64,000 nucleotides of DNA, from the sequence record MW584180.1; one strand, 5' to 3'. Below are positions 9,934-62,057 of the stretch, in pieces. A program made the translations under genes and the position numbers. The notes under the pieces were generated by a model. It was not told the origin of the DNA and ran no database searches. It saw only the letters and a program-made list of their open reading frames with translations. The DNA is from Mycobacterium phage prophiGD15-1. Each line of letters begins with the position of its first letter. The first letter of the stretch is position 1.

Positions 9934-10274
9934 CCGCCTGGTTTAAACGCACACAGCCCAAACCCCAACCAGTGGTGTCACTACAACCCCGAACCGGTGA
10001 AGAGACCCCTACGGCGTTCCTAGCCCGATTAAAGATCGAATGCACACCCCCATGCGAAGACTGCTACAGGCCCGCGGACTTCATGGTCACCATCCACCTC
10101 GTAGACCACTGCGACAGACCAGCCGTTGAAGTGTTCATCTGTGCTGCGCATGTATCCACGATCGGGAACTGGGTACAAGCCTCGATAGAGACAAGACGCA
10201 GAGGACGCTGCACCTGCTGCGGGCATGAAGTAACAGCACCACACGACCTCATAGAAGACGTGGTGAAGCTATGA
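9930..10274 (+). CDS. hypothetical protein, Cys-rich
   Basis: ATGA-coupled. Confidence 0.4.
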   Translation: MTAWFKRTQPKPQPVVSLQPRTGEETPTAFLARLKIECTPPCEDCYRPADFMVTIHLVDHCDRPAVEVFICAAHVSTIGNWVQASIETRRRGRCTCCGHEVTAPHDLIEDVVKL

Positions 10275-10453
10275 GCGATCACGTCGGGCGCGGTGGTGGC
10301 GGCCGGAACAAGTGGTGGAAGATTCGGAAGCTGGGAACCGGGTGGGAAATATGGCAATTCGAGACTGGAACATCCCGAATTCTCATGATATGCCAAGGGA
10401 TCTACCCCTCTGGTGCTGAGGCTATAGCAGCATTCGCGGCAGGTGGAAGATGA
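10271..10453 (+). CDS. hypothetical protein
   Basis: ATGA-coupled 60-aa ORF. Confidence 0.3.
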   Translation: MSDHVGRGGGGRNKWWKIRKLGTGWEIWQFETGTSRILMICQGIYPSGAEAIAAFAAGGR

Positions 10454-10585
10454 GCGACCCATCCGAATCCGCAGTGATAAAGCTCATGGGGTACGCCCAC
10501 GGCTTCATGAACCCCGAGTACATCCACCTGACGAGGGAAGAGGCGCAGGTGATTTTGCAGGCGCTGGAAAGGTTGGCTGATCTAA

Positions 10586-10891
10586 GTGTCTGATCCTGCA
10601 ATCGAAGCCGCACGCAAGGTATTCACCGAGTACTGGCCGGATCAAGGCGACTTTGAGTTCAACTACAGCAACGAGGGCCGCTTCGGTATCGAGGTCGCCC
10701 GTGAGATGGCTAAGTCGGTACAGGAACAACTGGCCGTCATCCGTGAACGCTACGAATTGGTACGTACGTGGATGCTCGCAGCTGAGACATCAGCGGAACT
10801 ATCCCGGCACTCAAGCGAAATGGCTGGTCTCAAGTACGCATACGACCTGATAGCACCCACGGTTTACCCAAGTGAGGAACTAGAGCGATGA
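10586..10891 (+). CDS. hypothetical protein
   Basis: 101-aa ORF. Confidence 0.4.
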   Translation: MSDPAIEAARKVFTEYWPDQGDFEFNYSNEGRFGIEVAREMAKSVQEQLAVIRERYELVRTWMLAAETSAELSRHSSEMAGLKYAYDLIAPTVYPSEELER

Positions 10892-11184
10892 GTGAGCTTG
10901 TAGACCGCGCTAAAGCATCCCTAGAAGGCGTAACCGGAGGACCGTGGGAGACCCGTCCTGGTGCTACCGGTGATCCGACGACGACAAGTGCATCGGTACA
11001 TTCCGGCCACCGTTCAATTCTCGTGTCTAGTGACGGCTACCACTACGGATATGCCGACAAGGCGGATGCCCGATTCATCGCCGCTGCAAGGCAGTTGGTT
11101 CCTGAACTCATCGCGGAAGTAGAGCGGCTGGAGGAACGTATCGCTGAGCAGGACCAAGAGCTTAGGTACTGGAGTAACCGATGA
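10888..11184 (+). CDS. hypothetical protein
   Basis: ATGA-coupled. Confidence 0.4.
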   Translation: MSELVDRAKASLEGVTGGPWETRPGATGDPTTTSASVHSGHRSILVSSDGYHYGYADKADARFIAAARQLVPELIAEVERLEERIAEQDQELRYWSNR

Positions 11185-11498
11185 GTGACGAACCTTCGGA
11201 CGCACAGAAGCTCATAGCGGAAGTGATAGCCACGCACCGCGCTTTATTCGATGGAGAGGCTTGCGACGCCTGCGACTGGAAGTTCACCAATGAGTATTAC
11301 GGGCACGACGAACACGTTGCCGTAGAGGTGGATAAAGCCCTTGGAGGACTCACGCGGAAGCGGCGGATTGACTATCAATGGCGCGAGACGGGCGAGGTGC
11401 ATCACGACCGATTCTTTGAAGGGAAGCCCGTCCCCAAGACGCGGCTGCACTATGTGCAGCAGTCCCGTTGGGCGTCTGGCTGGACGGTGACCGAATGA
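11181..11498 (+). CDS. hypothetical protein
   Basis: ATGA-coupled. Confidence 0.4.
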   Translation: MSDEPSDAQKLIAEVIATHRALFDGEACDACDWKFTNEYYGHDEHVAVEVDKALGGLTRKRRIDYQWRETGEVHHDRFFEGKPVPKTRLHYVQQSRWASGWTVTE

Positions 11499-11616
11499 GC
11501 TACATCGACATGTTCGGAATCGAGTATGGCGGCTGCGGTGACTGTGATTGTGATCATGGTTGTCAGGGCGTTGGCTCCGACGATGAGGCCAAGTTCTACC
11601 CCGAGGCTTCCGATGA

Positions 11617-11801
11617 CTGACTACCAAGACACCGGTAGCCGACGGAAACCTACGGCATACACCGAAACGGGGGCCGCTGAGCGGGTGTGCCCGGACTGTA
11701 GTGCCCCAGAAGGACATCCCTGTAGATGGATAGCCATGGATGGGCAGGGGGATTTAGGGAAACCAAGGCATTGGCCGCATGAGACACGTTGGAGGAAATG
11801 A
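11617..11801 (+). CDS. hypothetical protein
   Basis: small ORF. Confidence 0.3.
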
Positions 11802-11802
11802 A

Positions 11803-12120
11803 ATGCGTGACGATATTCACCCTGGACCGCGCATCATCTCCGGTAAAGCGGAACTACCCTGCCTGAAACCGGAGCCCTGGATGATCCAGGCGTCCTGCGC
11901 CACCGCAGACCCGGACGCGTTTTTCCCCCATAAGCGTGGCGACGGTGATAGCGAGTCGATCACCGTGCAGTACCAATACGCCAAGAAGATATGCCGCTCA
12001 TGCCCAGTCAGGGTTGAGTGTTTGACCTACGCGATCGTCAACGACGAACGCGACGGGATCTACGGCGGCTTAGGCCCTCGTGAGCGCGCGAAGATCATGC
12101 GTAACAGGGAGGCAAGCTGA
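11803..12120 (+). CDS. whiB: WhiB-family transcriptional regulator
   Basis: four-Cys Fe-S motif C..C-x2-C-x5-C (CATAD...CRSCPVRVEC) and G(I)YGG turn; GGAGG RBS upstream. Confidence 0.65.
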   Translation: MRDDIHPGPRIISGKAELPCLKPEPWMIQASCATADPDAFFPHKRGDGDSESITVQYQYAKKICRSCPVRVECLTYAIVNDERDGIYGGLGPRERAKIMRNREAS

Positions 12121-12434
12121 TGCCGCACTCAAGCCCTACCGACTGGATAGCCGGTGGAAGTGTCGCCGCAGACATCGTTGGATGCCTCACCGGTCTGGTC
12201 GCGGACCTGTCCTGGCAGGATAAAGCGGCGTGCCGTGGACTCCCTACGGAGTGGTGGTTCCCGGACCAAGGCGGCAGCCGGGAATGTAAGCGGGCCAAGG
12301 AAATCTGCCACGGCTGCCCAGTCAAACTCCAATGCCTCCAATTCGCGATAGAGGTACACGACCAGCACGGAATTTACGGGGAGCTGTCATTGAAGGACAG
12401 GCGCAGGTGGAACCAGGAAAGGAAAGCGGGCTAG
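12120..12434 (+). CDS. whiB: WhiB-family transcriptional regulator (second, tandem copy)
   Basis: CRGLPTEWWFPD...CHGCPVKLQC...GIYGE motif; ATGA overlap with upstream WhiB. Confidence 0.65.
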   Translation: MPHSSPTDWIAGGSVAADIVGCLTGLVADLSWQDKAACRGLPTEWWFPDQGGSRECKRAKEICHGCPVKLQCLQFAIEVHDQHGIYGELSLKDRRRWNQERKAG

Positions 12435-12475
12435 ACACCGCGAATGTCAGTGTATCGGAGGATAATTGAGGTATG
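12432..12475 (+). repeat. conserved stop-to-start intergenic motif copy 1 (TAGACACCGC-N-GATAATTGAGGTATG)
   Basis: seen in sequence; 41-nt stop-to-start spacing. Confidence 0.7.
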
Positions 12476-12904
12476 GGAATGACTGATTTACAGAACGTCC
12501 ACGAGCGCATTGCGGGCAAGCGTATAGCCTCCGTCGAGGCCGACGGTACGAGGCTGGTGCTAAACGATGGCACTGTGCTGCATCTCTACATGTCAGACAG
12601 TGACTGTTGTGCTTCCGCCGATGGGAAGTGGGTAATCCAGCCGGACGCGCTGGAGGCGATTATTACCGGCGTTCAGGTTACACCAGACGCGGATCGGAGC
12701 GGTTATGACGGTGACGGAAATACCAACTACGCCACCATCTCAATTCTGCACAACCAGAACCCCATTGCCCTTGCAGACTGCTATGCCAATGACGGTAATG
12801 GGGGCTACTACTTCTCCGTGCTATCCCTCCGTGTTGTCATGCCCGGTGACGAAGATGACGTCAAGGTGGAAGTCCTGAACTCTGACTCCTCGTCCAGCGA
12901 TTGA
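12473..12904 (+). CDS. hypothetical protein
   Basis: 143-aa ORF initiated from the conserved motif ATG. Confidence 0.45.
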   Translation: MGMTDLQNVHERIAGKRIASVEADGTRLVLNDGTVLHLYMSDSDCCASADGKWVIQPDALEAIITGVQVTPDADRSGYDGDGNTNYATISILHNQNPIALADCYANDGNGGYYFSVLSLRVVMPGDEDDVKVEVLNSDSSSSD

Positions 12905-12918
12905 GGAGGTAGTGAGAG

Positions 12919-13212
12919 TTGAGTGCTGAACCGCTGCAATGGGACCACAACCCAGATATTCGCGTCCCAAAGAATGGGTGCCGCGCCGAAGTTGACGGCG
13001 GTGCTTACATTCTGTTCAAGTACGGCGCTAGTTCGTGGCAGGTGCTTTTCAGCACTGGGTGGCATATACCCGATGAGGTCTATCTCGGCGACAGCGAATC
13101 AGACGCACTAGCCGCAGCAGAAGCTCACCATATCGCCATTAGGCAGAGAACGATCTACCGTCGAACGGGCAGGAGTGACGATGCCGCAGCGGATTCAGCG
13201 GAAGCGCACTAG
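12919..13212 (+). CDS. hypothetical protein
   Basis: 97-aa ORF. Confidence 0.35.
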   Translation: MSAEPLQWDHNPDIRVPKNGCRAEVDGGAYILFKYGASSWQVLFSTGWHIPDEVYLGDSESDALAAAEAHHIAIRQRTIYRRTGRSDDAAADSAEAH

Positions 13213-13549
13213 GGGTTGGCGAATGCCCGAGGGTGCTATCTACGTCGGGCGACCGAGCCAATGGGGCAACCCGTTTCGACCTGTTCTCGTCGGTGGCGAG
13301 TGGCTCATAGAGGATGACAACGGCGTCCAGTACGACGGGTTCGGGAGCAAGGTAAGCGCTATCGGTCGGTGCGTTGCGCTCTACCGGTCGCTCGATATGA
13401 CGTTCATGACAGACGCAGACCTAGACGAGTTCGTCGCGCCGCTACGGGGCCACGATCTCGCCTGCTGGTGCTCTCTCGATTCCCCTTGTCATGCAGACGT
13501 GCTGCTTGAACTCGCTAACGATCCACCGTCGAACGGAGAAGCTTTGTGA
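13175..13549 (+). CDS. DUF4326-domain protein
   Basis: N-terminal IQRKRTRGWRMPEGAIYVGRPSQWGNPF is the hallmark of DUF4326 found in many actinophages. Confidence 0.5.
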   Translation: MTMPQRIQRKRTRGWRMPEGAIYVGRPSQWGNPFRPVLVGGEWLIEDDNGVQYDGFGSKVSAIGRCVALYRSLDMTFMTDADLDEFVAPLRGHDLACWCSLDSPCHADVLLELANDPPSNGEAL

Positions 13550-13688
13550 GCGAACTACGTAGAGCACTGTTGGTAGCCAAAGCGGAAGCGGCACTTATCC
13601 CCACCGGCCGACGGGCTGAGCTCGACCGCAGATTCACTGCGGCCCAGAAGGCGGCACAGGCTCACGCCACGTACAGGAGGTCCGCTTA

Positions 13689-14366
13689 GTGTCCGTCTCC
13701 GACAGCTTCTTTCTCGATAAAGGCTCCCAACACAAGCTCCGTGAAGAGTTGGCCAGCATCCCCCGCATGATCGGGGAGCTGTCCGTCACCCTCACCCGCC
13801 AGGCTCGCATCCAGAGGCCAGGGTTGAGTATGTCCCGAAGGCCCAAGCCTGAGTCTCAGGTCCCCATCCATATCGGGGCACACAACGCCGCTGACGTACT
13901 GCACAACTGCCTAGGTACGTGGGTGAGGCTGGTATGCGAACAACGAGCGATCGTGTGGGATAAGGGCAACGACATCATCACGCTGGCCAAGTGGCTGCGA
14001 GTCAACATGATCGCCCTAGCCCTCACTGAAGGTTCAGAAGAAGCGTACGAGGACATCAAAGCCGCTATCGATGACTGCTGGCGACAGATAGACATCCCCG
14101 CCGACGATGACATTGTGATCGACCGAGGACGAGTACATGAAGCGAACAAACACATCGTCACCGCCGACACCATCGAACCTATCGCCCGCCGGATAGGGGA
14201 GATGGGAAAGAAGCTGAATGCGCAGCGGGTGCACTCGCTTACCCGTGGTGGGCATCTGCGTCCAGTCTCTAGCGACCCGGACACGGGTAAGAAGTTCTAC
14301 CGACTGGGGGATGTGCTGCACGCGCACAACAACTGCGAGAAACGAGACCGAAAGAAGGGCGCATGA
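13689..14366 (+). CDS. hypothetical protein (225 aa)
   Basis: GTG-start ORF. Confidence 0.45.
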   Translation: MSVSDSFFLDKGSQHKLREELASIPRMIGELSVTLTRQARIQRPGLSMSRRPKPESQVPIHIGAHNAADVLHNCLGTWVRLVCEQRAIVWDKGNDIITLAKWLRVNMIALALTEGSEEAYEDIKAAIDDCWRQIDIPADDDIVIDRGRVHEANKHIVTADTIEPIARRIGEMGKKLNAQRVHSLTRGGHLRPVSSDPDTGKKFYRLGDVLHAHNNCEKRDRKKGA

Positions 14367-14563
14367 GCGACGGACGCGGCATGTACATGAAGTACCGAGT
14401 TGAGCGGATGGACGGCAAGGATATGGGGCCATGTTTCATCCTTGAATACAAGAAGGATCGCCACGCGCGGGTGGCACTTGCGGCGTATGCCGACGCGTGC
14501 GCCGAGGACAATCCTGGACTAGCCCAAGACCTGCGGTGGACGCTAGAGGAGCTGGAGCGGTGA
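14363..14563 (+). CDS. hypothetical protein
   Basis: ATGA-coupled. Confidence 0.35.
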   Translation: MSDGRGMYMKYRVERMDGKDMGPCFILEYKKDRHARVALAAYADACAEDNPGLAQDLRWTLEELER

Positions 14564-15139: not shown

Positions 15140-15400
15140 GTGAAACTGATGAACGTATGGATAGTCTCTGCGCATCGGTCCTGGGGCGACAGGATTGAAT
15201 ACCACGGACACAGGGGGGATACCCACCGCTGGATGGGCTGGACGCGACCCATACCCAAGGTGGGGGAAGTTATTGAAACTGAATTGAAGTCCGGACGGGC
15301 GGCCCGCTTTCGGATAGTTGAGGTTGAGCGCGGGTACGGCACGGATGATATGTGGTGGGCCACAACCTCGGACGCGCCCATTTATGGAGCGACGACGTAA
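15140..15400 (+). CDS. hypothetical protein
   Basis: ATG with AAAGGGAG RBS; 86 aa. Confidence 0.4.
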   Translation: MKLMNVWIVSAHRSWGDRIEYHGHRGDTHRWMGWTRPIPKVGEVIETELKSGRAARFRIVEVERGYGTDDMWWATTSDAPIYGATT

Positions 15401-51435: not shown

Positions 51436-52628
51436 GTATCCGTGACAGCCTCAATAGTCGCCGCCCCGTGCCGGAAGAGTCGGCACCAGAGCAGGCGAAA
51501 ATGCGCGCGGAGTGGGACGGCACCGCAGGTTTTATTCAGACGGGCAAGGTCTCAGATGACTTCGATGAGCAGGACTTCGAGGGCATCCTTCGCGAGTTCG
51601 CCGACGAACTGCACTACGACCCAGCCAAGGTTGAGATTGCCGGTAACCCACAGGTCGTGGTGTGGGAGACGGGCTTCCGCAACAAGGAGGGGGAGTGGGA
51701 GAAGCATAAGCACCACTCCTGGCGGTATCACCTCGCCGTCCGGCGTTGGGCTATAGACCTACCCGCCTTGTATGCGGAGGTCCGCAAGACGAGGCCGGTG
51801 CAGCCGAAGAAACCCACAGGGGAGTCGACGGTTGTGGTGTGCTGGGCAGACATTCAAACCGGGAAGGTCGACCACCTCGGCGGCGTCAAAGAGTTATTAC
51901 TGCGCCTTCAGGAAAAGCGGGAAAACCTGAACGCCTACCTGAAACGTTCAAGGTTTGATCGCATCATCATCGCGGACGTGGGCGACATTGTGGAGGGCTT
52001 CGACAACGTCACAGCCCAAACCCGCACCAACGGCCTATCTCTCATGGATCAGGTCGAGGTTGCCGCCACGGAGTTCTGGAAGACCATCACCCTGTGCGCC
52101 AAGCACGCCCCGGTGGATGTGCTGTCCATCCCGTCCAATCACGGCCAGTGGCGCCGCGGGAAGGATCTAATCGGGAAGCCCACCGACGACTGGGGATTGG
52201 CTATCTCGAAACGTCTTGAATGGCACAACAACCCCGACAACCAAGGCCCGAACCTGCCGGTAGATTTCCACCGGCCGCCCGAGTGGTGCGAGACACTGCA
52301 GTTCGATGTACGCGGCACCAGGTTGGGGTTGGCGCATGGCCACCAAGCCTCCGGCGCTGACCGGGTTAAGACGTGGTGGGAGAAGATGACCCACGGCGGC
52401 GTCATGGACTGCCACGTCCTCTTGACTGGACATTTCCACTACGCCAGCCTGCGCCCCCATGGGCGGGATCAAGTAACGGGTAAGGCGCGCTGGCACATCC
52501 AAGCCTCAACCCTGGACAACGGCTCCGCATGGGTGATGAACAAGATGGGCGAAGACGGAGATCCGGCACTGACGGTGTTCCAGATCAACAACGACGGCTT
52601 CGACGTACAGAGCTTCGCCCTCCTATGA
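51420..52628 (+). CDS. calcineurin-like metallophosphoesterase
   Basis: IIIADVGDIVEG and GHFH motifs. Confidence 0.55.
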   Translation: MCALLSIRDSLNSRRPVPEESAPEQAKMRAEWDGTAGFIQTGKVSDDFDEQDFEGILREFADELHYDPAKVEIAGNPQVVVWETGFRNKEGEWEKHKHHSWRYHLAVRRWAIDLPALYAEVRKTRPVQPKKPTGESTVVVCWADIQTGKVDHLGGVKELLLRLQEKRENLNAYLKRSRFDRIIIADVGDIVEGFDNVTAQTRTNGLSLMDQVEVAATEFWKTITLCAKHAPVDVLSIPSNHGQWRRGKDLIGKPTDDWGLAISKRLEWHNNPDNQGPNLPVDFHRPPEWCETLQFDVRGTRLGLAHGHQASGADRVKTWWEKMTHGGVMDCHVLLTGHFHYASLRPHGRDQVTGKARWHIQASTLDNGSAWVMNKMGEDGDPALTVFQINNDGFDVQSFALL

Positions 52629-52706
52629 AACGTCACGATACGATTCAAGTAGGCGCCAACGCTGAAAAGCGCTGCCCGAGATGCGAAACCGTCAAGCCCG
52701 TCACGG
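52625..52706 (+). pseudogene. 5' portion of HNH endonuclease gene disrupted by transposon insertion
   Basis: MKRHDTIQVGANAEKRCPRCETVKPVTAFS... reads through to 61497-62057 in frame once the element and one TSD copy are removed. Confidence 0.7.
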
Positions 52707-52710
52707 CATT

Positions 52711-52780
52711 CTCGGTTGTCAGTTCTCAAATGACCTGTCGCATTCTCATCTAATCTGTCGCAACCGCGTGTCGTTCTCAT
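52711..52780 (+). repeat. three direct 20-bp subterminal repeats (GTTCTCAAATGACCTGTCGC / ATTCTCATCTAATCTGTCGC / GTTCTCATTTGATCTGTCGT), putative TnsB binding sites, tnsA-proximal end
   Basis: seen in sequence. Confidence 0.75.
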
Positions 52781-52806
52781 TTGATCTGTCGTACGCCTCT
52801 TAACAT

Positions 52807-53565
52807 TTGGGTGTGCAAGCGTCTCGGGCGCTGGTTGCGCCGCAGATTGCTAGTGACGTTGACGTGGAGTTCGTCGCCGATGGTCAACGCCACAGAGTAC
52901 CGCTGGTTGAGTGCGCGATGCTCAGATTTGATTTGGATTGCTCACCTGCCCGCAACTTCCCGAATTTTAGAGGTCAAAGCAACTACCCAGGCCTGTGGTG
53001 GTTTGCTACGACTGGCCAGCATGTAGGTCATGAATCCTGGCTGGAACGTGATCATCTGATGCTGCTCGATGCTGATCCGCACGTTGTGGGTGTGGCGTCG
53101 CAGCCATTTCGGCTGCATTGGCCTGGTGGCACTCACCATGTCCCGGACTACTTTGCTAGATATGCCGATGGCGGTGTGACGGTTCTTGACGTGCGCGATG
53201 ACAAGCGCATCACTGAGGATGATCAGCTCAAGTTTGATCTTTCGGAAATTGCTTGTCGCACAGTGGGTTGGGGTTACCGCCAGTTAGGTGTGCCTGATCA
53301 GGTGTTGGTGGCGAACATTCGGTGGCTATCGGGGTATAGACACCCCCGAGTGTGCCGCGAGGATGTGGCGGAGTCGTTGCTCGCGGTGTTCGCCGAACCG
53401 GCGCGGCTATTGTCTGGCGCTCAAATCGTCGGTGATCGGCTGCATGTGTTGCCGGTGCTGTTTCATTTGTTGTGGCACAGGCAGTTGTCGACAGATTTGG
53501 CTGGCGCGTTGCTATCGGAGTCGGCGGTGGTCGGCCCTGCCGGATGGTGGGCGCATTCGTGTTGA
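52807..53565 (+). CDS. tnsA: TnsA-like endonuclease
   Basis: restriction-endonuclease-like E...D...(V/L)DVRDDK signature, gene position next to the transposon end and upstream of tnsB. Confidence 0.55.
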   Translation: MGVQASRALVAPQIASDVDVEFVADGQRHRVPLVECAMLRFDLDCSPARNFPNFRGQSNYPGLWWFATTGQHVGHESWLERDHLMLLDADPHVVGVASQPFRLHWPGGTHHVPDYFARYADGGVTVLDVRDDKRITEDDQLKFDLSEIACRTVGWGYRQLGVPDQVLVANIRWLSGYRHPRVCREDVAESLLAVFAEPARLLSGAQIVGDRLHVLPVLFHLLWHRQLSTDLAGALLSESAVVGPAGWWAHSC

Positions 53566-55634
53566 GGGCAGCTGCGGTACGCGTGGGTGATGAGATCCGT
53601 TTAGCTGGTGAACGTTTCACGGTCTTATCGATCACCGATGGTGCGGCGCGATTAATCAGTGCTGTCGGCGAGCGCAGTTCGGTGCCACTGCCGGCGTTGT
53701 GCACGGACCCGTCGTTGGAATTGGTGGCAACGTCATGGCCGCCATTGTGCTCCGAAGAGGCTTTGACTGGCGTACCCCAAGAGGTGGTGGAACGGGCACG
53801 CTGGTGGGAACAGCATCTGCTTGACGTGATCACCGGCCGCTCCGGGACCGGCATGGACACTGACAGTGCTGATTTCGACCCCGCGGTGACGACGCTGCGC
53901 CGCCGGGAGATGGCCAAGCTCGCCGAACTTGCCGATGAAGGTCATGTTTTGACGTTGCGGACGCTGCAGCGCCAACGCAAGGCCTACCAGCGTGACGGGC
54001 TGCTGGGTGTGCTGGATGGGCGTTACCGGCCGAACCGGCCCGTGCATGGGCGAGTCGATCCGCGGGTGAGCGAGACGGTAGTTGGTCTTATCGAGGCCGA
54101 AACTGAGTTGTCGACGGGCACGGTGCGCCGCATGCAGCGCAAGACCGCACGGGCGTTGAAGGCTCAGTACGGCGATGAGGCACCGCAAATGCCCTCGAAG
54201 GCAACATTTTATCGTCTGGTGGGCCGATTATCTGCGGGCAAGCACACGTTCGGGTCAGCCCGCACGCGCAGGTCGTTGGCCAAGCAGCCAGACAAACCGT
54301 TCGGGACGTTGACAGTGGCCCGCCCCGGCGAGGTGGTGGAGGTCGATTCCACACCCCTGGATGTAGCGGTGCGCTTCGATGACGGCACCGTTGGCCGGGT
54401 CGAGTTGATTGGGATGGTCGACTGTGCCACCCGCACGATCGCCGCAGCGGTATTGCGGCCAACAACCACGGCGGTGGATGCGGCGCTGCTGTTGGCGCGA
54501 TCGTTGACCCCGGAGCCGATGCGCCCAGGCTGGTCTGATGCGGTGCGGATGACGGCCTCAGTGCTACCCCATCACAGTTTGACCACTCTGGATCAGCGGT
54601 TCGCGGCCGCCGCTGCCCGGCCCGTGATCGCCCCAGAAACCATTGTGATCGATCACGGCAAAGCGTATCTGTCGCAGACATTTTCGCAGGCCTGCTGCAC
54701 GCTGGGGATCAATTTGCAGCCCGCGCACCCGGATGAGCCGACGGACAAACCGAAGATCGAACGCACTATCGAGTCGGTCGGCACGATGTTCGCCTCCGAG
54801 GTGGCCGGATATCTGGGGTCCTCGGTGGAGCGGCGCGGCAAGCACGCCGAAAAACGTGCCGTGTGGTCGATCGTGCAGTTGCAAGCGCTACTGGATGAAT
54901 GGATTGTCACCGCCTGGCAGAACCGGCCCCACGACGGGCTGCGCGACCCCTTAACTCCGGGAAAGACGTTGACTCCCAATGAGAAATACGCAGCCCTGGT
55001 CGAGGTGGCCGGGTATGTGCCGGTGGCCTTGAGCGGTGATGACTACATCGAACTGCTGCCGACGCGGTGGCGCAAGATCAACTCCTACGGGGTGCGGATC
55101 AACAATCGCCACTACGACGCCAAAGCCTTCAACCCCTACCGCGGCCAATCTTCGGGGGTCGGTAAGAAGAACAATAGGTGGGAAGTGCATTTCGACCCGT
55201 GCGATGTGTCCCGGGTTTGGGTGCGCAATCACCACGAATCGGGCTGGATCCAGGCCAACTGGACGCACCTGCGGACCGCGCCGGTGCCGTTCGGGGAAAC
55301 GATCTGGAAGCAGAGCCAACAGATCCTGGCCGAGCGCGGCCAGCGTGCCGCGACGCAAGCCGAGATCGCCGAAGCGGCCGAAGAATTGCTGACTCGGGCC
55401 GCTGCCGGGCCGCCAGAGCAGCTCGTGGACAAGAAGATCCGCCGGAAGCTGGTTCGCGCCCAGCACTCCACCGTGACACCGCTGTGGCCACGCCCAGCAC
55501 CCGATTTACCCGCCGACGGCCCTGTGGTGGCCGATCGCGGCGATAGGGACAACGACGATGTGATTGATGTGGCGGCAGTGGTGCCGCTTCCGGTGTTCGA
55601 TGCCCGCAAGGAGGCCAAATTGTGGCGACTGTAA
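53545..55634 (+). CDS. tnsB: TnsB/TniA-like DDE transposase (Mu-type, rve core)
   Basis: VVEVDSTPLDV (D) ... VIDHGKAYLS (D) ... E; ~700 aa. Confidence 0.75.
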
Positions 55635-56671
55635 ATAGATTCGAGGCCGTCAACCCGCTCGATGATCGCCGCCAGCCCACCACCACCTTGGAGGGCTGGC
55701 GGCGTTTCGTTGAGGCCGATCCACCCGAGTTCACGCTCCTGGACGATACGCAGTGGCGCAGTCTGGATGTGCGGGACCGGATGCTCTACGACGAGGCCCG
55801 AATCGCCCATCACTCCGAACTGGTCGTGGTCACCACGTCGGCGATCGCCCGGATCAACAACGAAGGCCGGCTGCTGACCCTGCTCAATCAGTGCGAGATC
55901 GGAGCCCGCCGCGGTTTGATCATTTCCGGGGATGCGGCCACCGGGAAGACCACGGCCATCAAACAGATGGGCCGCACCCATGAACTGCGGGTGCGGGGAC
56001 GCCTGACCTACGACGCCACGTACGACGCCGTCGCGGGCCGTATCCCGGTGGTATACGTGACGGCCCCGCCCAAGGGCTCACCACGCAAACTGGCGATGGA
56101 ATTCGCCCGTTTCCTGGGGCTGCCGATGACTATGAACGCCCGTGCGAACGTCACCGACATCGCCGACGCGGTCTGCCAAGTCCTCATCGATGCCCGCACC
56201 GACATCGTGGTTGTCGACGAGATCCACAACCTGAACCTGGAAACCCGCGCCGGAGAAGACCTCTCGGATCATCTCAAATATTTCACCGAACACCTGCCCG
56301 CTACGTTCATCTACGCCGGCATCGACGTCGAACGTTCCGGGGTATTCACAGGTACCCGCGGAAAACAACTCGCTGGACGCTGCGGAGTTATCCACACCCA
56401 GGCCTTCCCCTACAACGAGGAATGGATCTCGCTGGTGGCAGGGATGGAGAACACGTTGCGACTGCACCACCACGAACCCGGAACCCTTGTCGCCGACGCC
56501 AAATACTTGCATCGGCGCACCAACGGCATGATCGGCTCGCTGGCGCACCTGATCCGCTCAGCAGCTATCCGTTCCATCATCGACGAGACCGAAGCCGTCA
56601 CCCGGGCACTGATGGATGCCACCCTGCTCGACTACGCCGCGCAAAGCGCTGCGGCCCGAACCGCCAGCTGA
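55622..56671 (+). CDS. tnsC: TnsC/TniB-like AAA+ ATPase
   Basis: Walker A LIISGDAATGKTTAI, Walker B VVVDEIHNL. Confidence 0.7.
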   Translation: MATVNRFEAVNPLDDRRQPTTTLEGWRRFVEADPPEFTLLDDTQWRSLDVRDRMLYDEARIAHHSELVVVTTSAIARINNEGRLLTLLNQCEIGARRGLIISGDAATGKTTAIKQMGRTHELRVRGRLTYDATYDAVAGRIPVVYVTAPPKGSPRKLAMEFARFLGLPMTMNARANVTDIADAVCQVLIDARTDIVVVDEIHNLNLETRAGEDLSDHLKYFTEHLPATFIYAGIDVERSGVFTGTRGKQLAGRCGVIHTQAFPYNEEWISLVAGMENTLRLHHHEPGTLVADAKYLHRRTNGMIGSLAHLIRSAAIRSIIDETEAVTRALMDATLLDYAAQSAAARTAS

Positions 56672-57510
56672 TGAACACCGCCACCGCCGCAGGACGCGCC
56701 TGGCCGGCCGGGCCGCGTCAACGCTTACCACGTGTAGTGACCCCATTCCGCACCGAGACAGTGAGTTCGTATATCGACCGGCTAGCCCACGCCAACCACC
56801 TCACCCGAGGCCGGTTGCAGTACCACGTCGCCGCAGGCACCTACCAGACCCGCGCCGACTGGCTCGCCGTCGCCACCGGAATCGCCGAAAACATCCTGCG
56901 CGAACGGCTCATTGGGTTCGGAGCGGCCAACGGCACCAACGCCAAACAACAAGCCCGGGTACGGCCCGCCTGCCGGCTGTGCATGGCCCGTCGCGGTGTC
57001 TACGAGCCCGTCCACTGCTGGCTGCCCGCGTACGAAACTGTATGTTTTCGCCACTTACGCTGGATCGGCCCCGGCGCGGCCACCTGGGAAGACCAACACG
57101 ACCTGAGCAATCACCCCGATATCGTGGTCGCCGCCCGCCGCCACCGCCAGCTGATCCGAGCCCACCGCGACCTCGCCGGCAGCGCCTTGTCCGAGGCCCG
57201 CCACATCCTGACCTGGTGGTCCCGGGTCAACCAAGACAGCGGCGACGACCAGACAGACCCGACCACGTATCTGCAGGCCTACCCAGACCTGATCACGATC
57301 GCTACCGTGCTGGCCGATCACCGCCACCAAGTCGCCGCCGGTCCCTGCACCAGGCATCCGATCTGGTCTGAGCACCTGCTGGGTTTGATCAACACACACG
57401 CAACCACCATCCGCGACGACCCCCGGCCTCTACAGCACTGGATCGACGACCAACGCATCATCGCCCGCATCCGGCCACCACGGCACAAATCCGCCTGGTC
57501 AGCACCCTGA
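56671..57510 (+). CDS. tniQ: TniQ/TnsD-like target-selection protein
   Basis: N-terminal PFRTETVSSYIDRLAHANHL is the TniQ signature; followed by Cys/His cluster (CRLC...C...H). Confidence 0.55.
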   Translation: MNTATAAGRAWPAGPRQRLPRVVTPFRTETVSSYIDRLAHANHLTRGRLQYHVAAGTYQTRADWLAVATGIAENILRERLIGFGAANGTNAKQQARVRPACRLCMARRGVYEPVHCWLPAYETVCFRHLRWIGPGAATWEDQHDLSNHPDIVVAARRHRQLIRAHRDLAGSALSEARHILTWWSRVNQDSGDDQTDPTTYLQAYPDLITIATVLADHRHQVAAGPCTRHPIWSEHLLGLINTHATTIRDDPRPLQHWIDDQRIIARIRPPRHKSAWSAP

Positions 57511-58051
57511 TTTCCGCCTCGAGCACCTGCTGGCAACGACACGCGACCTGAGGAAGCACAAGCTGATTTCTCTTTTCTTCCTATTACCAGCCGAAGAAGG
57601 GTACGGCGGCACCCGCAACTGGGGAGAGTGATGTGCCGCTTGTTGTGTCGCCCCGCTGCTATCTGCTGGCCTGCTTGTAGGGAGCCGCATCGGGTCGCCG
57701 CTGATGCCAGATCGGTGGGATCGATCGGGTTCTTTTCAGTGTGCCGGGATGCTTCTGAGGTTCTCGTGAGGCTGTTTCTGTAGCTGTTGACGCTGTTGAG
57801 TGTGTCCGGTTAGGGAGGTCCGTCAGTAGTGCGTGGCATGCGCAAAATCGTTCCAAGGACTCTCAATCACCCAAGTGATGTTGTCGCCGCGATTCGTGCA
57901 CGGTGAGAGCGCCTGAAACCGCGCTACCCGACCTGGGCTGTCCAAGCCGGAGTATCCTGGACGTAGACGGATATCTAGTACCTGCCTACTCATAGGCGCG
58001 GCACCGTCGAACTATTCGGCACCGATTACGGGCCGAGGCTAGGAGCGTCTC
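57511..58051 (+). other. 540-bp non-coding region inside transposon (lower GC), candidate promoter/ncRNA region upstream of cargo operon
   Basis: no ORF with codon bias; T-rich patches. Confidence 0.3.
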
Positions 58052-58477
58052 ATGGCGCATCAGATATTTTGTCCACAACCACTCCAGTCGGCTCTGCGCC
58101 TTCATCTGGATCCGAAAACTGGATACGCCGATGGAGCTTGGTGCCCACGATCGAAGGATCTATCGGTCGAGGTTCTGCCGTTGCTTACGCGACTTAGCCT
58201 CGATTTGGGTCCCATTGATCGGATTACCTATCGAGCTGGGGAGTGGGCACCCTCCTCGCGGAGGGTACTTTTCCTCAACCGTCTGGTTCACCTGGGTTGG
58301 TCACTTCTGCAGCCCGCCAGCACCATTAGCGTTCGAGGGACGAACGGCGCACATTTGACCCTGCTGATTGTCCCCCCTTCCAGGAAATCGCATTCGGAAG
58401 CAGAGGATCAATGCGATTTTGGCGGTAGATCCGACCGGGTGCCTAAGTCGCAATCAGCCGGACCGACAACATCATGA
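58052..58477 (+). CDS. DUF5994-like protein, paralogue A (DGAWCPRS motif)
   Basis: shares LRL.L.P...DGAWWPRS.DL...LP.LL..L...LG.I.R..YR..EW ... LLV.PP with three neighbours. Confidence 0.55.
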   Translation: MAHQIFCPQPLQSALRLHLDPKTGYADGAWCPRSKDLSVEVLPLLTRLSLDLGPIDRITYRAGEWAPSSRRVLFLNRLVHLGWSLLQPASTISVRGTNGAHLTLLIVPPSRKSHSEAEDQCDFGGRSDRVPKSQSAGPTTS

Positions 58478-58944
58478 TCAGCGCGGTCACATCGGCGGTA
58501 GAGACACTCGACTGCGACTGCGACGACTCGATTCGTCTTCGACTAAAGCCCGATGGTGACTGGAGCGGACATATCGACGGCGCATGGTGGCCGCGCTCAC
58601 AGGACCTAAATCAAGACTTACCAGCAGTTTTGGATGCTGTAGCTTCCCGGTTAGGGACCATCAAGCGCGTGATCTACCGCATCACCGAATGGGACACAGC
58701 GCCGAAACAACTGTGCTACTGGGGTCGTATGGTGTCGTTAGACGGGTACCGTTACCAGAGGCCAGACACCATCTACATCAGCGATCTAGACCATCGTCGA
58801 CTGGTACTGCTGGTTGTCCCTCCGATGACCGACCCGCATCATGCCCACGACGTGATGACTAGAGCTGCCGAACCGGGCAGCACATGTAGCCCAACAGCAT
58901 TGCTGTCAATCGAACCATTGGCGGCAGCACGCAGAACAGGGTGA
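58474..58944 (+). CDS. DUF5994-like protein, paralogue B (DGAWWPRS motif)
   Basis: ATGA-coupled to A; same family motif. Confidence 0.55.
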   Translation: MISAVTSAVETLDCDCDDSIRLRLKPDGDWSGHIDGAWWPRSQDLNQDLPAVLDAVASRLGTIKRVIYRITEWDTAPKQLCYWGRMVSLDGYRYQRPDTIYISDLDHRRLVLLVVPPMTDPHHAHDVMTRAAEPGSTCSPTALLSIEPLAAARRTG

Positions 58945-59014
58945 TGACCTTCACGGGCTGCCTGGATCGCAGACCCGGGATCGAAAGTCGACCCCGGCTT
59001 TGAGTAGTTATCGC

Positions 59015-59095
59015 ATGGCACAAGGCACCGTGGAGTGGTTCAACGCCGAAAGGGATTCGGGTTCATCACTCCCTGACAGTGGCAGTCAGCTTTGA
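59015..59095 (+). pseudogene. remnant of cold-shock protein gene (CspA N-terminus MAQGTVEWFNAE then 1-bp deletion)
   Basis: atggcacaaggcaccgtggagtggttcaacgccgaa matches the conserved csp 5' end; frame breaks in the A-run. Confidence 0.5.
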
Positions 59096-59415
59096 CGAAC
59101 AAGCCGGTGATCGTGGCCCGCAGGCTGTTTTCAGTGCAAACTGTCTAAATCGTCGGCACGAATCGAGCTGGCTGTTCCAGTGGCAGCCAGCTCGATCGCG
59201 GAGCATCGTTAATACCGTTGCCCGATCGCGACCCTTTGGGCGCGGCCCCGCCGCGCGAATCCCATCATGAAATTGGCACAGTTGGCGAACTTTGTTGTGG
59301 TCAAACGCATATGCCAGCTGGTCCCATCTGAGCTTGGCGGCACCTATCGATAGTCGTCGCGTCCGGGACTAACTAAGAATCTGGCATTGAGTAACCGTCA
59401 CGAGGGTTGAATCCC

Positions 59416-59862
59416 TCAAGCAGCCAAGATTATTCGTAGGGCCGCAGTCACCTGGTCCTGACTGGAGGAATCAAGTAGGGGCATCTGTGCAGTCAGACGC
59501 ATGATCCTTCGAGCGAGGAGCTTGTTGGTGCGTGCCGGCACCATGAGCATGCGGACCGTTCGATACTCGCCCCGGAGCGTGACCACCCAATGGAACGGCC
59601 GATTTGCGAGGTACTGAGGCATCGCAACCGACCTCATGCAGGAACGCGACGAGCCCGGCTTCCAGTTCAGTGAGACCTGACTGACAGTGCCAATGTGCTC
59701 GAATAGCTCGTCGATCAGGGGCGACAACTCCCGGGCAATCAGTCCGTCGTCCTGGGGCCACCAAGCCCCGTCCATTCTGCCGGTCCTGCTCGGCCCTAAC
59801 GTGAAGCGAACCGGTGAACCAGCATATTCAGCCTGCATCATACGTACTTCCCTGTCGCTCAA
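59416..59862 (-). CDS. DUF5994-like protein, paralogue C (DGAWWPQD motif)
   Basis: same family pattern, minus strand. Confidence 0.5.
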   Translation of the reverse strand: MSDREVRMMQAEYAGSPVRFTLGPSRTGRMDGAWWPQDDGLIARELSPLIDELFEHIGTVSQVSLNWKPGSSRSCMRSVAMPQYLANRPFHWVVTLRGEYRTVRMLMVPARTNKLLARRIMRLTAQMPLLDSSSQDQVTAALRIILAA

Positions 59863-59968
59863 CGGGACTCAGACAACGGACCTCAAACGCACCGCACCGC
59901 GATAGGATCGCTAACGGCACGGTTGGTGAATGGTTGACACTTTCAACAGATTCAAATCACAGCGCGGG

Positions 59969-60160
59969 TCATCGGATCTTCTCCGGAACCGAGTCCAGCG
60001 CGTGCAACACCTGGACTGCAGCGATCTGGGCAACATCGTTGTCAAGCGTTGACGATGCCATCAGCGCCTGGACCACCAATTCAACGCGCTTCTCGTAGGG
60101 AGTCTGGAACGTGATCGTAGAGTCCATGACCTTTGTCCTGTTCAGTCGGAACGGTTTCAA
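59969..60160 (-). CDS. hypothetical 63-aa protein between paralogues C and D
   Basis: ORF co-oriented with C and D. Confidence 0.3.
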   Translation of the reverse strand: MKPFRLNRTKVMDSTITFQTPYEKRVELVVQALMASSTLDNDVAQIAAVQVLHALDSVPEKIR

Positions 60161-60196
60161 GTACCGCGATGGTGCGGTTGTTGTGACTGCCGCGCA

Positions 60197-60736
60197 TTAT
60201 CGGCGCCTGGTGCTCACAGAGCGATTGGTTCGATGTTCAGCGCCTAACGTCCCACCTTCGGTGTCCCATCGGTCTTGCGCCTCAAACATGTCGGTACAGA
60301 CGGGCATGTCGTGAGCTGGTAGCAGCTGAGCGACAGTTGCGCAGCTGCCCGGTGCTGCCGCAGCCATCATGGCGCTGTGAGCACCACTTGCCTGGGCATC
60401 GGGGGCGATTACCAAGAGGTTCAGATGGATCCCATGAGCACCTTGGATACTGATTGTGTTAGCTGGCTGAATGAGTGACCAGTTCAAATGTGCGAGGCGA
60501 TCCCGAAACAGCATGCGCCGCGAGCTCGATGTCCACTCTGACACTCGGTAAACCACGCGGTCAATGGTGCCCAAGCGAACAGTAAGTACCCGGAGCAGCG
60601 ATGGCAGCTCGATCATCAAGTCTTTCGAGTAAGGCCACCAGGCGCCGTCGACATATCCACTAGGTGACGCTTTTGGCTTTAACCGAAGACGCACGGCAGG
60701 CCCGCATCGTGGTTTTGAAAACAGCTGACGCGTCAT
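60197..60736 (-). CDS. DUF5994-like protein, paralogue D (DGAWWPYS motif)
   Basis: closest paralogue of A (VRLRLKP...DGAWWP.SKDL...LP.LL..L...LG.IDR..YR..EW.SSSRR.LF..RL.HL.WSL.QPA.TISI.G..G.HL.LLVI.P). Confidence 0.55.
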   Translation of the reverse strand: MTRQLFSKPRCGPAVRLRLKPKASPSGYVDGAWWPYSKDLMIELPSLLRVLTVRLGTIDRVVYRVSEWTSSSRRMLFRDRLAHLNWSLIQPANTISIQGAHGIHLNLLVIAPDAQASGAHSAMMAAAAPGSCATVAQLLPAHDMPVCTDMFEAQDRWDTEGGTLGAEHRTNRSVSTRRR

Positions 60737-61371
60737 CGGACGCTCCTTGCTTTGGCTCCGCGCACGGGGCCGAATCGTCGGCACGGTCACACCCATGGAT
60801 GAGCGGGCACCAAATATCTCGCCGTACCCTCACCCTACCCCCATTCCTCTGGAAGGAGCACATAAGCAGCGGACTAGTTTCGGGCAGCACTTGCGGATTG
60901 CACCTTGTGCCGCTGACAATTTACGGTCAGGGCCCCGCTGACCCGGTCGGGTGCGTCTCGGCTGGCCTGTATGGGCTGCGATGCGTGGACGGTTGCTTGT
61001 TTTCCACCGACGACAGCCCAGGACACAACGATTAGTTCAAAATCGAGTACGCAAGATTATTCGTACACGAATGGCAAACGGACAACAGATCAAGTCAAGC
61101 TGCCTTAGATCAAACTGATCAAGGAACCAAGCGCCAATATCTTCAATCGATCTGCGGTACCGCAGGTCAAGTACCGACAGCACCTGCCTTGGCCGTAGCC
61201 TTGGCAGGAAACTGACTGGTTCAACGTCAATCCGAGGTCACCGCTGGTTTCAAACACCCGACACAAGACCCTCGCCTCAGGTGCGCTCCACCGCAACACC
61301 ACCGGATTGCGCGGAACCGTTCTGGCATCAAGCCAGTGACGTTGGCGACGCGAGCCCGCTCGAGTGGACTT

Positions 61372-61491
61372 GTGACAGATCAAATGAGAACCACTGGGCC
61401 ATCAACGGTGAAATGAGTTCTCGCTTAATCTGTCGCAACCCTGTTCAGTAGCGGCTTTTGTCGAATAATCTGCGACAGATCATTTGAGAAC
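61372..61491 (+). repeat. three 20-bp subterminal repeats at the distal transposon end (61372-61391 inverted, 61417-61436 direct, 61472-61491 inverted), spaced ~45-55 bp
   Basis: seen in sequence: reverse complements match GTTCTCATTTGATCTGTCAC and GTTCTCAAATGATCTGTCGC. Confidence 0.7.
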
Positions 61492-61496
61492 GGACA

Positions 61497-62057
61497 TCGG
61501 TTGACCGTAACCGAAAAAGCGGCCGAAACTGTTACTGCCTCGAATGTACGCGTAGGACCAACCGGGCGTCGTATAGCCGGAACTTCGAGGGTGGGAAAGC
61601 CCGGAAGGCGGCAGCCTACAAGCGTGACCGTGAGAAGTTTTTGGCGCGAAACAGGCGCTGGCGGGCTGATAATTACGAACGCGAGCTGGAAACGAACCGT
61701 AAGTACTACCACGATAACAAGGCTCAAGTTCGGGCCTGGCACAAGCGCTACTACGAAGCTAATAAGGATGCAGCTTTCGCGGCAAGTCAGCGGCGGCGAG
61801 CTCGCATGCGGTCCGCTGCTACCGCCCCGTTCTCCATGGACGATCTGCGGATGAAGTGGCGCTACTGGGGTAATAGGTGCTGGATCTGCGGCGGGAATCC
61901 CACTGCGACTGATCACGTCAAGCCACTGAGCAAAGGCGGTGCCCATATGCTGTGCAACCTCAGGCCGATCTGCAAACCTTGCAACTCGGCAAAGCATGAC
62001 AAGTGGCCGTATCAGCGTCCGATACCCGCTGATACTTCCGAAGATGTCGCGAGCTAG
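61497..62057 (+). pseudogene. 3' portion of the disrupted HNH endonuclease gene
   Basis: ...RWRYWGNRCWICGGNPTATDHVKPLSKGGAHMLCNLRPICKPCNSAKHD is the HNH motif; in frame with 52625-52706. Confidence 0.7.

Follow-up and report, generated by a model that had tools for sequence, protein, structure and literature searches.

A Tn7-like transposon in the HNH endonuclease gene of prophiGD15-1 and a palindrome associated with its insertion sites

Insertion in the HNH endonuclease gene

The window analysed here (64,000 nucleotides of Mycobacterium phage prophiGD15-1, MW584180.1) carries a Tn7-like transposon of 8,780 bp (52717–61496, + strand), inserted in codon 31 of a phage HNH endonuclease gene with a 5-bp duplication. 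The best explanation, which we hold with good confidence, is a recently active, heteromeric Tn7-like element in a prophage gene, which its TniQ, alone or with a host factor, would direct to the neighbourhood of a short palindrome. The insertion itself is already known, having been published in 2021; the association with the palindrome is possibly new, and suggests a candidate attachment motif for a clade of Tn7-like elements from actinobacteria that is still uncharacterised.

The insertion is confirmed by the empty site in a related phage with an intact HNH gene, prophiGD17-2 (MW584161), which lacks the element: once the element and one TCGGT are removed, positions 40000–64000 of the window are identical to it at 15,216/15,216 positions. 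The 5′ fragment of the gene (52625–52716, +; 30 codons and 2 nt), joined to the 3′ part (61502–62057, +; a 138-aa C-terminal fragment with the Pfam HNH domain), gives an open frame of 648 nt, identical to prophiGD17-2 gp108, the annotated intact HNH endonuclease. Excision thus restores the gene as the preliminary description had proposed, with a product of 215 aa where it gave about 214. Of the two copies of the duplicated pentamer, single in the empty site, the right one (61497–61501) and the right border (61496), read directly from the sequence, lie where they had been placed; on the left, the element starts at 52717, 10 bp from the 52707 first proposed, and TCGGT occupies 52712–52716, not 52702–52706. 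An origin other than insertion, with the segment being ancestral to the phage or a module that the phage carries, has next to no probability: no point was found in its support, and it is refuted by the 100% identical empty site with one TCGGT and an intact HNH gene, and opposed by the presence of the same element in chromosomes, flanked there by different duplications.

Dedrick et al. 2021 (mBio 12:e03431-20, PMC8092298) found the HNH-like gene of prophiGD20-1 to contain an 8,452-bp transposon, which has imperfect inverted repeats of 25 bp and is accompanied by a 5-bp duplication, and reported a similar transposon in that gene of prophiGD15-1, GD41-1, and GD59-1. The insertion in the window is the prophiGD15-1/41-1/59-1 copy of that transposon, so the earlier claim that a Tn7-family element in an actinophage was undescribed fails. 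The main text of PMC8092298 calls the element a transposon and does not use the term Tn7; the paper leaves the proteins, the end repeats, the copies in chromosomes, and the choice of target unanalysed. In GenBank, however, gp113 of prophiGD20-1, the first gene of its element copy, is already labelled TnsA. The prophiGD20-1 copy (8,452 bp, 98.9% identical to that in the window) lacks, by alignment, a 355-bp segment at 57549–57903. It lies in the same gene, 31 bp downstream of the window's insertion (from duplication start to duplication start), with ACTGT as its duplication; the offset is stated as 25 bp in PMC8092298. The host prophage belongs to the MabA1 cluster of Mycobacterium abscessus, and 12,527 bp of the window are identical in sequence to the GD59 chromosome.

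Ends, transposition genes and cargo

The element begins with TGT and ends with ACA. From 52717 onward, the left terminus reads TGTCAGTTCTCAA; the right terminus, TTGAGAACGGACA, has its last base at 61496, and the two form a 26-nt terminal inverted repeat, complementary at 24/26 positions. With ≤5 mismatches allowed over the whole 64-kb window, the 20-bp repeat GTTCTCAAATGATCTGTCGC occurs six times, every time at the element ends. At the tnsA-proximal end (52717–52792, +) three close copies, abutting or nearly so, fill 52722–52792, starting at 52722, 52742, and 52773 (all +); the distal end (61372–61496, −) has spaced copies at 61372 and 61472 (both −), 100 bp apart, and a reversed copy at 61417 (+). 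tnsA adjoins the densely packed end. The repeats are putative TnsB binding sites in asymmetric arrays. The arrays at both ends, the 5-bp duplication, and the Tn7-like layout of close and spaced repeats, all part of the preliminary description, are borne out by the repeat positions and the empty site.

The four transposition genes stand in Tn7 order on the + strand, as had been read from their translations, and profile searches place each in the expected family. tnsA (52807–53565, 252 aa; 250 aa in other gene calls, which start 6 nt downstream) matches NCBIfam NF033179, TnsA_like_Actin, at 3.2e-84, and the family profile matches the solved PseCAST TnsA structure at 8e-9. The protein is predicted to be a full-length restriction-endonuclease-like subunit with catalytic residues (an E…PD…(D/E)xK-type site): E76, D114, and D128 are present in 24/26 relatives, and position 130, the lysine site of the nuclease motif, is R here, as in 15 of the 26, and K in 10. 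tnsB (53562–55634, 690 aa) encodes a DDE transposase with matches to rve and Mu-transpos_C (PF09299, 2.9e-8); solved TnsB chains match at 2e-8 to 7e-7 (Tn6677 TnsB at 2.1e-8), and D262, D364, and E400 align with the solved TnsB of Tn6677. tnsC/tniB (55622–56671, 349 aa) encodes an AAA+ ATPase (Pfam TniB, PF05621, 2.4e-15; ShCAST TnsC, 3.4e-5) with Walker A GDAATGKT and Walker B IVVVDE.

The last gene, tniQ (56671–57510), encodes a small target selector of 279 aa with a C-x2-C…C…C-x2-H motif, conserved among relatives. Its match to Pfam TniQ (PF06527, 2.4e-4) scores 22.2 bits, under the 27-bit curated cut-off; 13/18 of its relatives match PF06527, and PADLOC TniQ is matched at 4.7e-7. The sole high-probability fold match of its AF2 model is ShCAST TniQ (7svu_X, probability 0.98, E 0.09). 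No Cas family was matched by the element's ORFs in Pfam or NCBIfam, or by the six ORFs searched against PADLOC, and the element has no array-like direct repeats and no Rfam match; in these searches it thus showed neither the cas genes nor the CRISPR array of a CRISPR-associated transposon.

The cargo includes four DUF5994 paralogues (Pfam PF19457): two on the + strand, at 58052–58477 (141 aa, 6.1e-24) and 58474–58944 (156 aa, 9.5e-35), and two on the − strand, at 59416–59862 (2.2e-15; 119 aa in other gene calls) and 60197–60796 (199 aa, 2.1e-32). A small DUF6307 protein (59969–60127, −; 52 aa) is assigned from precomputed Pfam matches (PF19826) on identical copies. The TnsA match to NF033179 likens the element to the Actinobacteria-dominated Tn7-like clade 2 of Benler et al. 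2021 (TnsA_like_Actin), in which relatives carry metal-resistance or transporter (MMPL) cargo downstream of tniQ rather than DUF5994. No member of clade 2 has been experimentally characterised (Benler et al. 2021), and the literature on the clade that we examined reports no attachment site for it.

Copies and insertion hot-spots

The element also occurs elsewhere, in M. abscessus chromosomes: AP028613 and CP063165 carry copies, at a chromosomal locus, that have 0/8,780 mismatches to that in the window. Each of eight complete insertions is flanked by a 5-bp duplication of its own (TCGGT in the window, and seven more), and a 5-bp duplication is also present at two relatives' insertions. Recent activity forms part of the explanation that we favour with confidence. 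Movement would be by cut-and-paste; the putative nuclease motif of TnsA has R, not K, at the lysine position.

The insertions cluster in two hot-spots of about 310 bp, one in the prophage and one in the chromosome. In the prophage, at least five independent insertions, all in a single orientation, fall inside 311 bp spanning the MRE11/HNH junction (52436, 52578, 52701, 52716, and 52747); the chromosomal positions are 3813, 3825, 4087, 4095, and 4123. Counting the element and five relatives, 16/20 junctions lie 53–108 bp from a palindrome, CGTCAC(N0-1)GTGACG, with AT-rich flanks, and four have none nearby. The tnsA-proximal end faces the palindrome in 10/13 cases, the distal end in 3/13. Targeting is clearly non-random, as shown by the two hot-spots and the palindrome association.

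In 78.9 kb of non-redundant flanks, 5/5 perfect palindromes counted lie 59–76 bp from an insertion (binomial 6e-9), a count that does not include two more palindromes, whose distances from insertions are 1.6 and 2.9 kb; the palindrome was first spotted in data that also fed part of these statistics. Among cases examined after the hypothesis was formed, the distance is 76.5 bp in prophiGD05-1, where the insertion is at the lysin A start, 82 bp in L028, 66 bp in L036, 60 bp in L038, and 53 bp in L043; neither the L015 site nor the M. franklinii copy has a palindrome nearby. In the window, the candidate attachment-site motif CGTCACGATACG (52631–52642, HNH codons 3–6) matches the palindrome CGTCACGTGACG at 10/12 positions and is one of only 3 matches with ≤2 mismatches in 55.2 kb of prophage. 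Four of the five prophage insertion positions are 60–108 bp from it, and 52436 is 202 bp away.

Target selection

In the mechanism that we propose, TnsC, the AAA+ adaptor, would join the transposase to the small TniQ, which, alone or with a host factor, would be directed to the AT-flanked palindrome. Integration would follow 53–108 bp away, usually with the tnsA-proximal end toward the motif, an orientation like that of Tn7R relative to the TnsD site. In the prophage, the 10/12 motif would have served as the target, and its presence is our proposed reason for the repeated insertions across the MRE11/HNH junction. We lean towards the view that the actinobacterial clade as a whole (TniQ identity about 42–100%) homes on the palindrome through its small TniQ, which would recognise the site itself, possibly as a dimer, or by way of a host protein bound there, and, as part of the same reading, that this homing would be distinct from the TnsD, TnsE, TnsF, and CRISPR-guided pathways.

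It is rather unlikely that the hot-spots are unrelated to the palindrome and reflect a regional bias, for example toward AT-richer or nucleoid-protein-bound DNA, or the survival only of insertions at harmless sites. The GC content is indeed somewhat low at the hot-spots, no k-mer is common to all target regions above shuffled controls, and the prophage motif is degenerate, besides the four junctions that lack a palindrome. However, five divergent relatives, in unrelated genomes and with different ends, each have a palindrome 53–82 bp from the tnsA-proximal end; a perfect 12–13-bp palindrome is expected by chance less than once per 5 Mb, and selection cannot account for five positions in 311 bp of a 60-kb prophage. 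On either account, the palindrome association would be a by-product of long regulatory intergenic regions.

The “res hunters” of the Tn5053 family require a res site occupied by resolvase. By analogy, the palindrome may be the operator of a host protein, with the transposon sensing the protein–DNA complex and not the bare sequence, a possibility that we regard as real but not as the probable one. It would suit the variable insertion distance, the operator-typical AT-rich flanks, and the small TniQ without a C-terminal DNA-binding extension; according to Faure et al. 2023 (PMC10293859), a small TniQ is characteristic of elements that rely on an additional selector. Against it, no partner gene is conserved beside tniQ in relatives, and our literature search found no known regulator with such a motif.

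The element can also be compared with Tn7 (TnsABC+D; attTn7 downstream of glmS). The likeness extends to the tnsA-tnsB-tnsC-selector order with tnsA next to one end, the TGT/ACA termini, the 5-bp duplication, repeats that are close together beside tnsA but spaced out at the opposite end, and the tnsA-proximal end usually lying toward the presumed selector site. Tn7, however, has a large TnsD and one conserved target gene, whereas here there is a 279-aa TniQ, no TnsE, and apparently a short, multi-copy palindrome. The insertion distance varies over about 55 bp, far more widely than in Tn7 or CASTs, insertions can fall inside genes, and there are many sites, and several copies, per genome.

The clustering of insertions near a short and presumably protein-bound stretch of DNA, instead of at one nucleotide, and the TniB/TniQ-type proteins also recall Tn5053/Tn402, elements that have TniA/TniB/TniQ and a serine resolvase, lack TnsA, and are replicative. 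Pfam does name TniB and TniQ, the clustered insertions resemble res-hunting, and hybrid junctions, which in some copies join prophage and chromosome flanks, could stem from replicative intramolecular events. Yet we give an element of this type hardly any chance, as a full-length TnsA with predicted catalytic residues is present, neither a resolvase nor a res site is encoded (no ORF of the element matched a serine resolvase in Pfam or NCBIfam), and homologous recombination involving two copies would account for the hybrids just as well.

The palindrome hypothesis is a concrete and cheaply testable account of target choice in an uncharacterised actinobacterial Tn7 branch. An attachment signal with many occurrences in each genome, and chance occurrences in phage genes, would lead to several copies per genome; it would explain the repeated hits in the same phage gene, a chromosomal hot-spot common to two different Tn7-like elements, and the presence in strains of copies that can cause megabase-scale rearrangements by recombination. 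A compact, protein-guided integration system working in mycobacteria might be a further outcome.

Effect on the phage

The preliminary description saw the phage as vehicle or target. It is a target, one of several; that it is a vehicle spreading the transposon between strains in virions is very improbable, even though, the element apart, the host prophage does not differ from one that appears intact. Identical copies are found in chromosomes away from the phage, and the element enlarges the prophage genome from 61,797 bp by 8,785 bp to 70,582 bp (61.8 to 70.6 kb), in agreement with the size of prophiGD15-1. The authors predicted this to be too large to package; loss of the transposon was needed for lytic growth, and the one phage obtained from a lysogen with the transposon had lost it by deletion (PMC8092298, PMC9934374). 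The element enlarges the genome and splits a gene that lytic growth does not require, and so disables the phage rather than riding on it. The published insertion is thus an example of a transposon disabling an M. abscessus prophage, and bears on calls of prophage viability and on phage therapy. Finally, the deletion endpoint of phage phiGD20-1 falls exactly at the distal terminus of the transposon, which, together with the identical copies at different loci, lends indirect support to transposition.

The insertion and its empty site

Read directly from the sequence, the right terminus of the element (TTGAGAACGGACA) has its last nucleotide at 61496, followed by TCGGT at 61497–61501, and the left terminus (TGTCAGTTCTCAA) has its first nucleotide at 52717, preceded by TCGGT at 52712–52716; these two boundaries give an element of 8,780 bp. 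The preliminary description had the right end and its duplication correctly, and placed the left boundary 10 bp too far left. The terminal inverted repeat is 26 nt long, complementary at 24/26 positions. A search of the whole 64-kb window for the 20-bp unit GTTCTCAAATGATCTGTCGC, tolerating up to 5 mismatches, returned six occurrences, all within 125 bp of the termini. The left end carries three closely packed copies at 52722, 52742, and 52773, while at the right end two inverted copies at 61372 and 61472 lie 100 bp apart. The sixth copy, at 61417 (61417–61436), is unexpectedly in the opposite orientation to its neighbours; together with the terminal repeat it forms an inverted repeat with 33 nt in between.

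The upstream 12.7 kb match, by megablast, a MabA1-cluster prophage of Mycobacterium abscessus, and the empty-site allele is found in prophiGD17-2 (MW584161). When 52717–61496 and one TCGGT are removed from window positions 40000–64000, the remainder is identical to prophiGD17-2 at 15,216/15,216 positions, up to the end of the prophiGD17-2 record. Both the insertion and its 5-bp duplication are therefore settled. The restored open reading frame, expected from the outset to encode an intact HNH endonuclease, is 648 nt long and equals the annotated HNH endonuclease gp108 of prophiGD17-2.

The insertion had been taken to be undescribed, which is wrong, because Dedrick et al. (2021, PMC8092298) describe it and the GenBank record of prophiGD20-1 labels gp113 “TnsA”. 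In their paper, the HNH-like gene of prophiGD20-1 is interrupted by an 8,452-bp transposon that has imperfect inverted repeats of 25 bp and a 5-bp duplication, and a similar transposon lies in the same gene of prophiGD15-1, its offset given as “25 bp to the left”; the insertions in GD41-1 and GD59-1 are identical to that of prophiGD15-1, and copies occur in three other genomes. The main text does not use the term Tn7. In our comparison, the window and the GD59 chromosome (CP065274) are identical across 12,527 bp. The observation is real and the classification correct, but both the element and its insertion were already covered by the literature and by GenBank annotation; what chiefly gives the finding its remaining value is the targeting hypothesis that the follow-up produced.

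Core proteins and classification

Profile searches match all four families that had been proposed. The tnsA reading frame (52807–53565) matches NCBIfam TnsA_like_Actin at 3.2e-84 and has no match in Pfam; a TnsA profile built from 26 relatives matches the solved PseCAST TnsA at 8e-9, with E76-S77, P113-D114, and D128-x-R130 opposite its nuclease motif (position 130 is R in 15/26 relatives and K in 10/26). TnsB (53562–55634) matches Mu-transpos_C and rve, and solved TnsBs at 2e-8, with which D262, D364, and E400 align. TnsC (55622–56671) matches TniB at 2.4e-15 and ShCAST TnsC at 3.4e-5, and carries Walker A and Walker B motifs. TniQ (56671–57510, 279 aa) taken alone falls under the Pfam cut-off; PF06527 is matched by 13/18 of its relatives, and the PADLOC TniQ model matches at 4.7e-7. 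The predicted TniQ structure (AF2, pLDDT 84) has ShCAST TniQ as its sole high-probability fold match. As single sequences or profile, TnsA and TniQ gave nothing useful against PDB sequences; recognition in the PDB came only via the family profile for TnsA and via the fold search for TniQ.

The element contains no resolvase, Cas protein, or CRISPR array, and an Rfam search of it at E up to 0.1 found no non-coding RNA; the window has no tRNAs. With the four protein families present and these features absent, the element is a Tn7-like transposon of the TnsABC+TniQ kind, most likely a member of the Actinobacteria-dominated Tn7-like clade, which has no experimentally characterised member (Benler et al., 2021).

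Mobility and clustering of insertions

The element appears to move between loci and is not phage-specific. In the assembly collection, 448 blocks are indexed as containing its exact TnsC protein, and the window's 8,780-bp copy matches, with 0 mismatches, chromosomal copies in AP028613 and CP063165, located at an intergenic locus, here called chrB, that is flanked by a DUF3297 gene and a two-component system. Eight complete insertions have eight different 5-bp duplications (TCGGT, ACTGT, GGTGT, TGTTC, CCAAC, CCAGC, CCGGT, and TTGGC), adjacent insertions serving as mutual empty-site controls. A scan with the terminal 25-mer over one genome per species gave a single match, in M. franklinii, and on this basis the element is essentially confined to Mycobacteroides.

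The insertions are clearly clustered. In the prophage, five positions (52436, 52578, 52701, 52716, and 52747), all in one orientation, span 311 bp over the junction of the MRE11 3′ end and the HNH 5′ end; in chrB, five positions lie within 311 bp and 4/5 share their orientation. In strain UC22 (CP012044; L017 10023–10330), chrB position 4083–4087 is occupied by a Tn7-like element of a second type, with end repeats that finish in GGGG, 275 bp from the strain's copy of the window's element. A GGGG-type element is also present in another M. abscessus prophage, prophiGD05-1 (MW584169; L035:7471–17196), with a duplication, ATGAG, that overlaps the start codon of lysin A; its tnsB is about 78% identical to that of the window at the DNA level. 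This element carries a two-component system, and its 246-aa TnsA reading frame (L035 7567–8307) is annotated merely as a 62-aa “transposase, C terminus”.

At the database locus L015/L020 (1243 and 10087–14471), the insertion with duplication TTGGC has entered a gene for a tyrosine-recombinase-like protein of about 458 aa, in the multi-CxxC region at its N terminus. Further integrase genes lie next to it, as does a third Tn7-like element with its left end near 12022. We consider the likeness between this zinc-ribbon target and the HNH zinc ribbon to be coincidental: the genes are oppositely oriented and share no DNA similarity.

Hybrid copies also occur. The loci L005, L011, and L012/L019 combine a left flank from the prophage (positions 52436, 52701, and 52716) with a right flank from a distant part of the chromosome, which in L011 and L012/L019 is chrB, ≈ 0.8 Mb away; large rearrangements between two copies are therefore implied. 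In these last two of the three hybrids, one junction coincides with that of a simple insertion already known and the second is new, a pattern that intramolecular replicative transposition also fits.

A palindrome as candidate attachment site

Over all target regions, no fixed-offset or common k-mer motif exceeded shuffled controls, and it was solely through inspection of the flanks that a palindrome, CGTCAC(N0-1)GTGACG, was found. In chromosomal flanks, the perfect form CGTCACNGTGACG lies 59–95 bp from insertions. In 78.9 kb of non-redundant flanks, 5/5 perfect palindromes are at 59–76 bp from an insertion, a count that leaves out two palindromes 1.6 and 2.9 kb from insertions and becomes 5/7 with both included; just 2.3% of the 78.9 kb is that close to an insertion (binomial probability 6e-9). 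The motif had first been noticed in part of the data behind this statistic, and was therefore tried on fresh cases. All five fit, with the motif proximal to tnsA in each: prophiGD05-1 (CGTCACGTGACG, 76.5 bp from the insertion), the metagenomic relative L028 (TGTCACAGTGACG, 82 bp; TniQ 42% identical, duplication TATGC on both sides), and the relatives L036 (CGTCACTGTGACG, 66 bp), L038 (CGTCACCGTGACG, 60 bp), and L043 (CGTCACAGTGACA, 53 bp). One more relative, whose contig ends at that flank, was left out.

In the prophage hot-spot the 13-bp palindrome is absent even at up to 3 mismatches, and the spacer-less 12-bp form alone matches, at 10/12. This best match, CGTCACGATACG, lies at 52631–52642 over HNH codons 3–6 and is one of only three with at most 2 mismatches in 55.2 kb of prophage. 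To its right, insertions at 62.5, 77.5 (the window's own), and 108.5 bp have the tnsA end facing the motif; to its left, one insertion at 60.5 bp has the distal end facing it. Misfits are the junction at prophage position 52436, 202 bp from CGTCACGATACG, the third element in L015, with a palindrome 344 bp away, and the L015 site and the M. franklinii copy, neither of which has a palindrome nearby. Hairpins in the hot-spot amount to a single 6-bp stem at 52712–52729. In every case the palindrome has AT-rich flanks, and a literature search turned up no mention of the motif in a bacterial context. Palindromes are frequently paired a few hundred bp apart (L039 3059/7482, L036 2482/2957, and L004 3730/4020), and the decayed relative in L039, of which just a TnsC fragment, TniQ, and the arsenic-resistance cargo are left, has palindromes on both sides.

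By analogy with Tn7 and CAST systems, TnsB and TnsA would between them cleave both strands at each end, TnsC would bridge to TniQ at the target, and the tnsA-proximal end would be placed toward the selector site. We lean, with modest confidence, toward the palindrome as this selector site. Small TniQs usually act with an extra selector (Faure et al., 2023, PMC10293859), and no selector gene beside TniQ is conserved among the relatives, so either TniQ would read the palindrome itself or a palindrome-bound host protein would be sensed. That the distances vary so widely speaks for a looser arrangement than the Tn7/CAST ruler. DUF5994 was considered as a conserved TniQ partner and extra target selector, and rejected: in the relatives its place is taken by mercury, arsenic, P-type-ATPase, or MMPL genes, and it is therefore cargo rather than transposition machinery.

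The phage as target

The HNH gene is split by this insertion, and MRE11 is also hit within the hot-spot, by other insertions. The lytic phage phiGD20-1 (L033, MW314858, about position 1388) carries a deletion whose right endpoint coincides precisely with the transposon's distal ACA terminus; at its other breakpoint, in gene 110, there is an overlap of 2 bp. Besides the transposon, this deletion takes away the 5′ end of HNH and the MRE11-like gene. These regions are missing from a viable phage, so they are dispensable for lytic growth. With the insertion, the prophage grows from 61,797 by 8,785 to 70,582 bp (70.6 kb), which likely explains why plaques appear only after loss of the element. The suggestion of a phage vehicle is not borne out by this size increase and the deletion of the transposon in phiGD20-1: the phage is a target.

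Directly outside the annotated right end of the prophage, beyond the window, the loci L014/L016 carry a tyrosine integrase gene and an HTH_17 gene (12603–14008), which suggests another integrated element beside the prophage or a different prophage boundary.

Cargo and size variants

The cargo has no PADLOC or PHROGs match as a known defence or phage protein, and a literature search found no paper mentioning DUF5994. The element exists in two size variants, of 8,452 and 8,780 bp, separated by 52 substitutions and a 355-bp indel; the latter is a non-coding segment downstream of tniQ (window 57549–57903) present only in the 8,780-bp variant. In UC22, the copy of the window's element is itself interrupted downstream of tniQ by an IS of the IS256 family (Transposase_mut), which lies between tniQ and DUF5994, as the 355-bp segment does.
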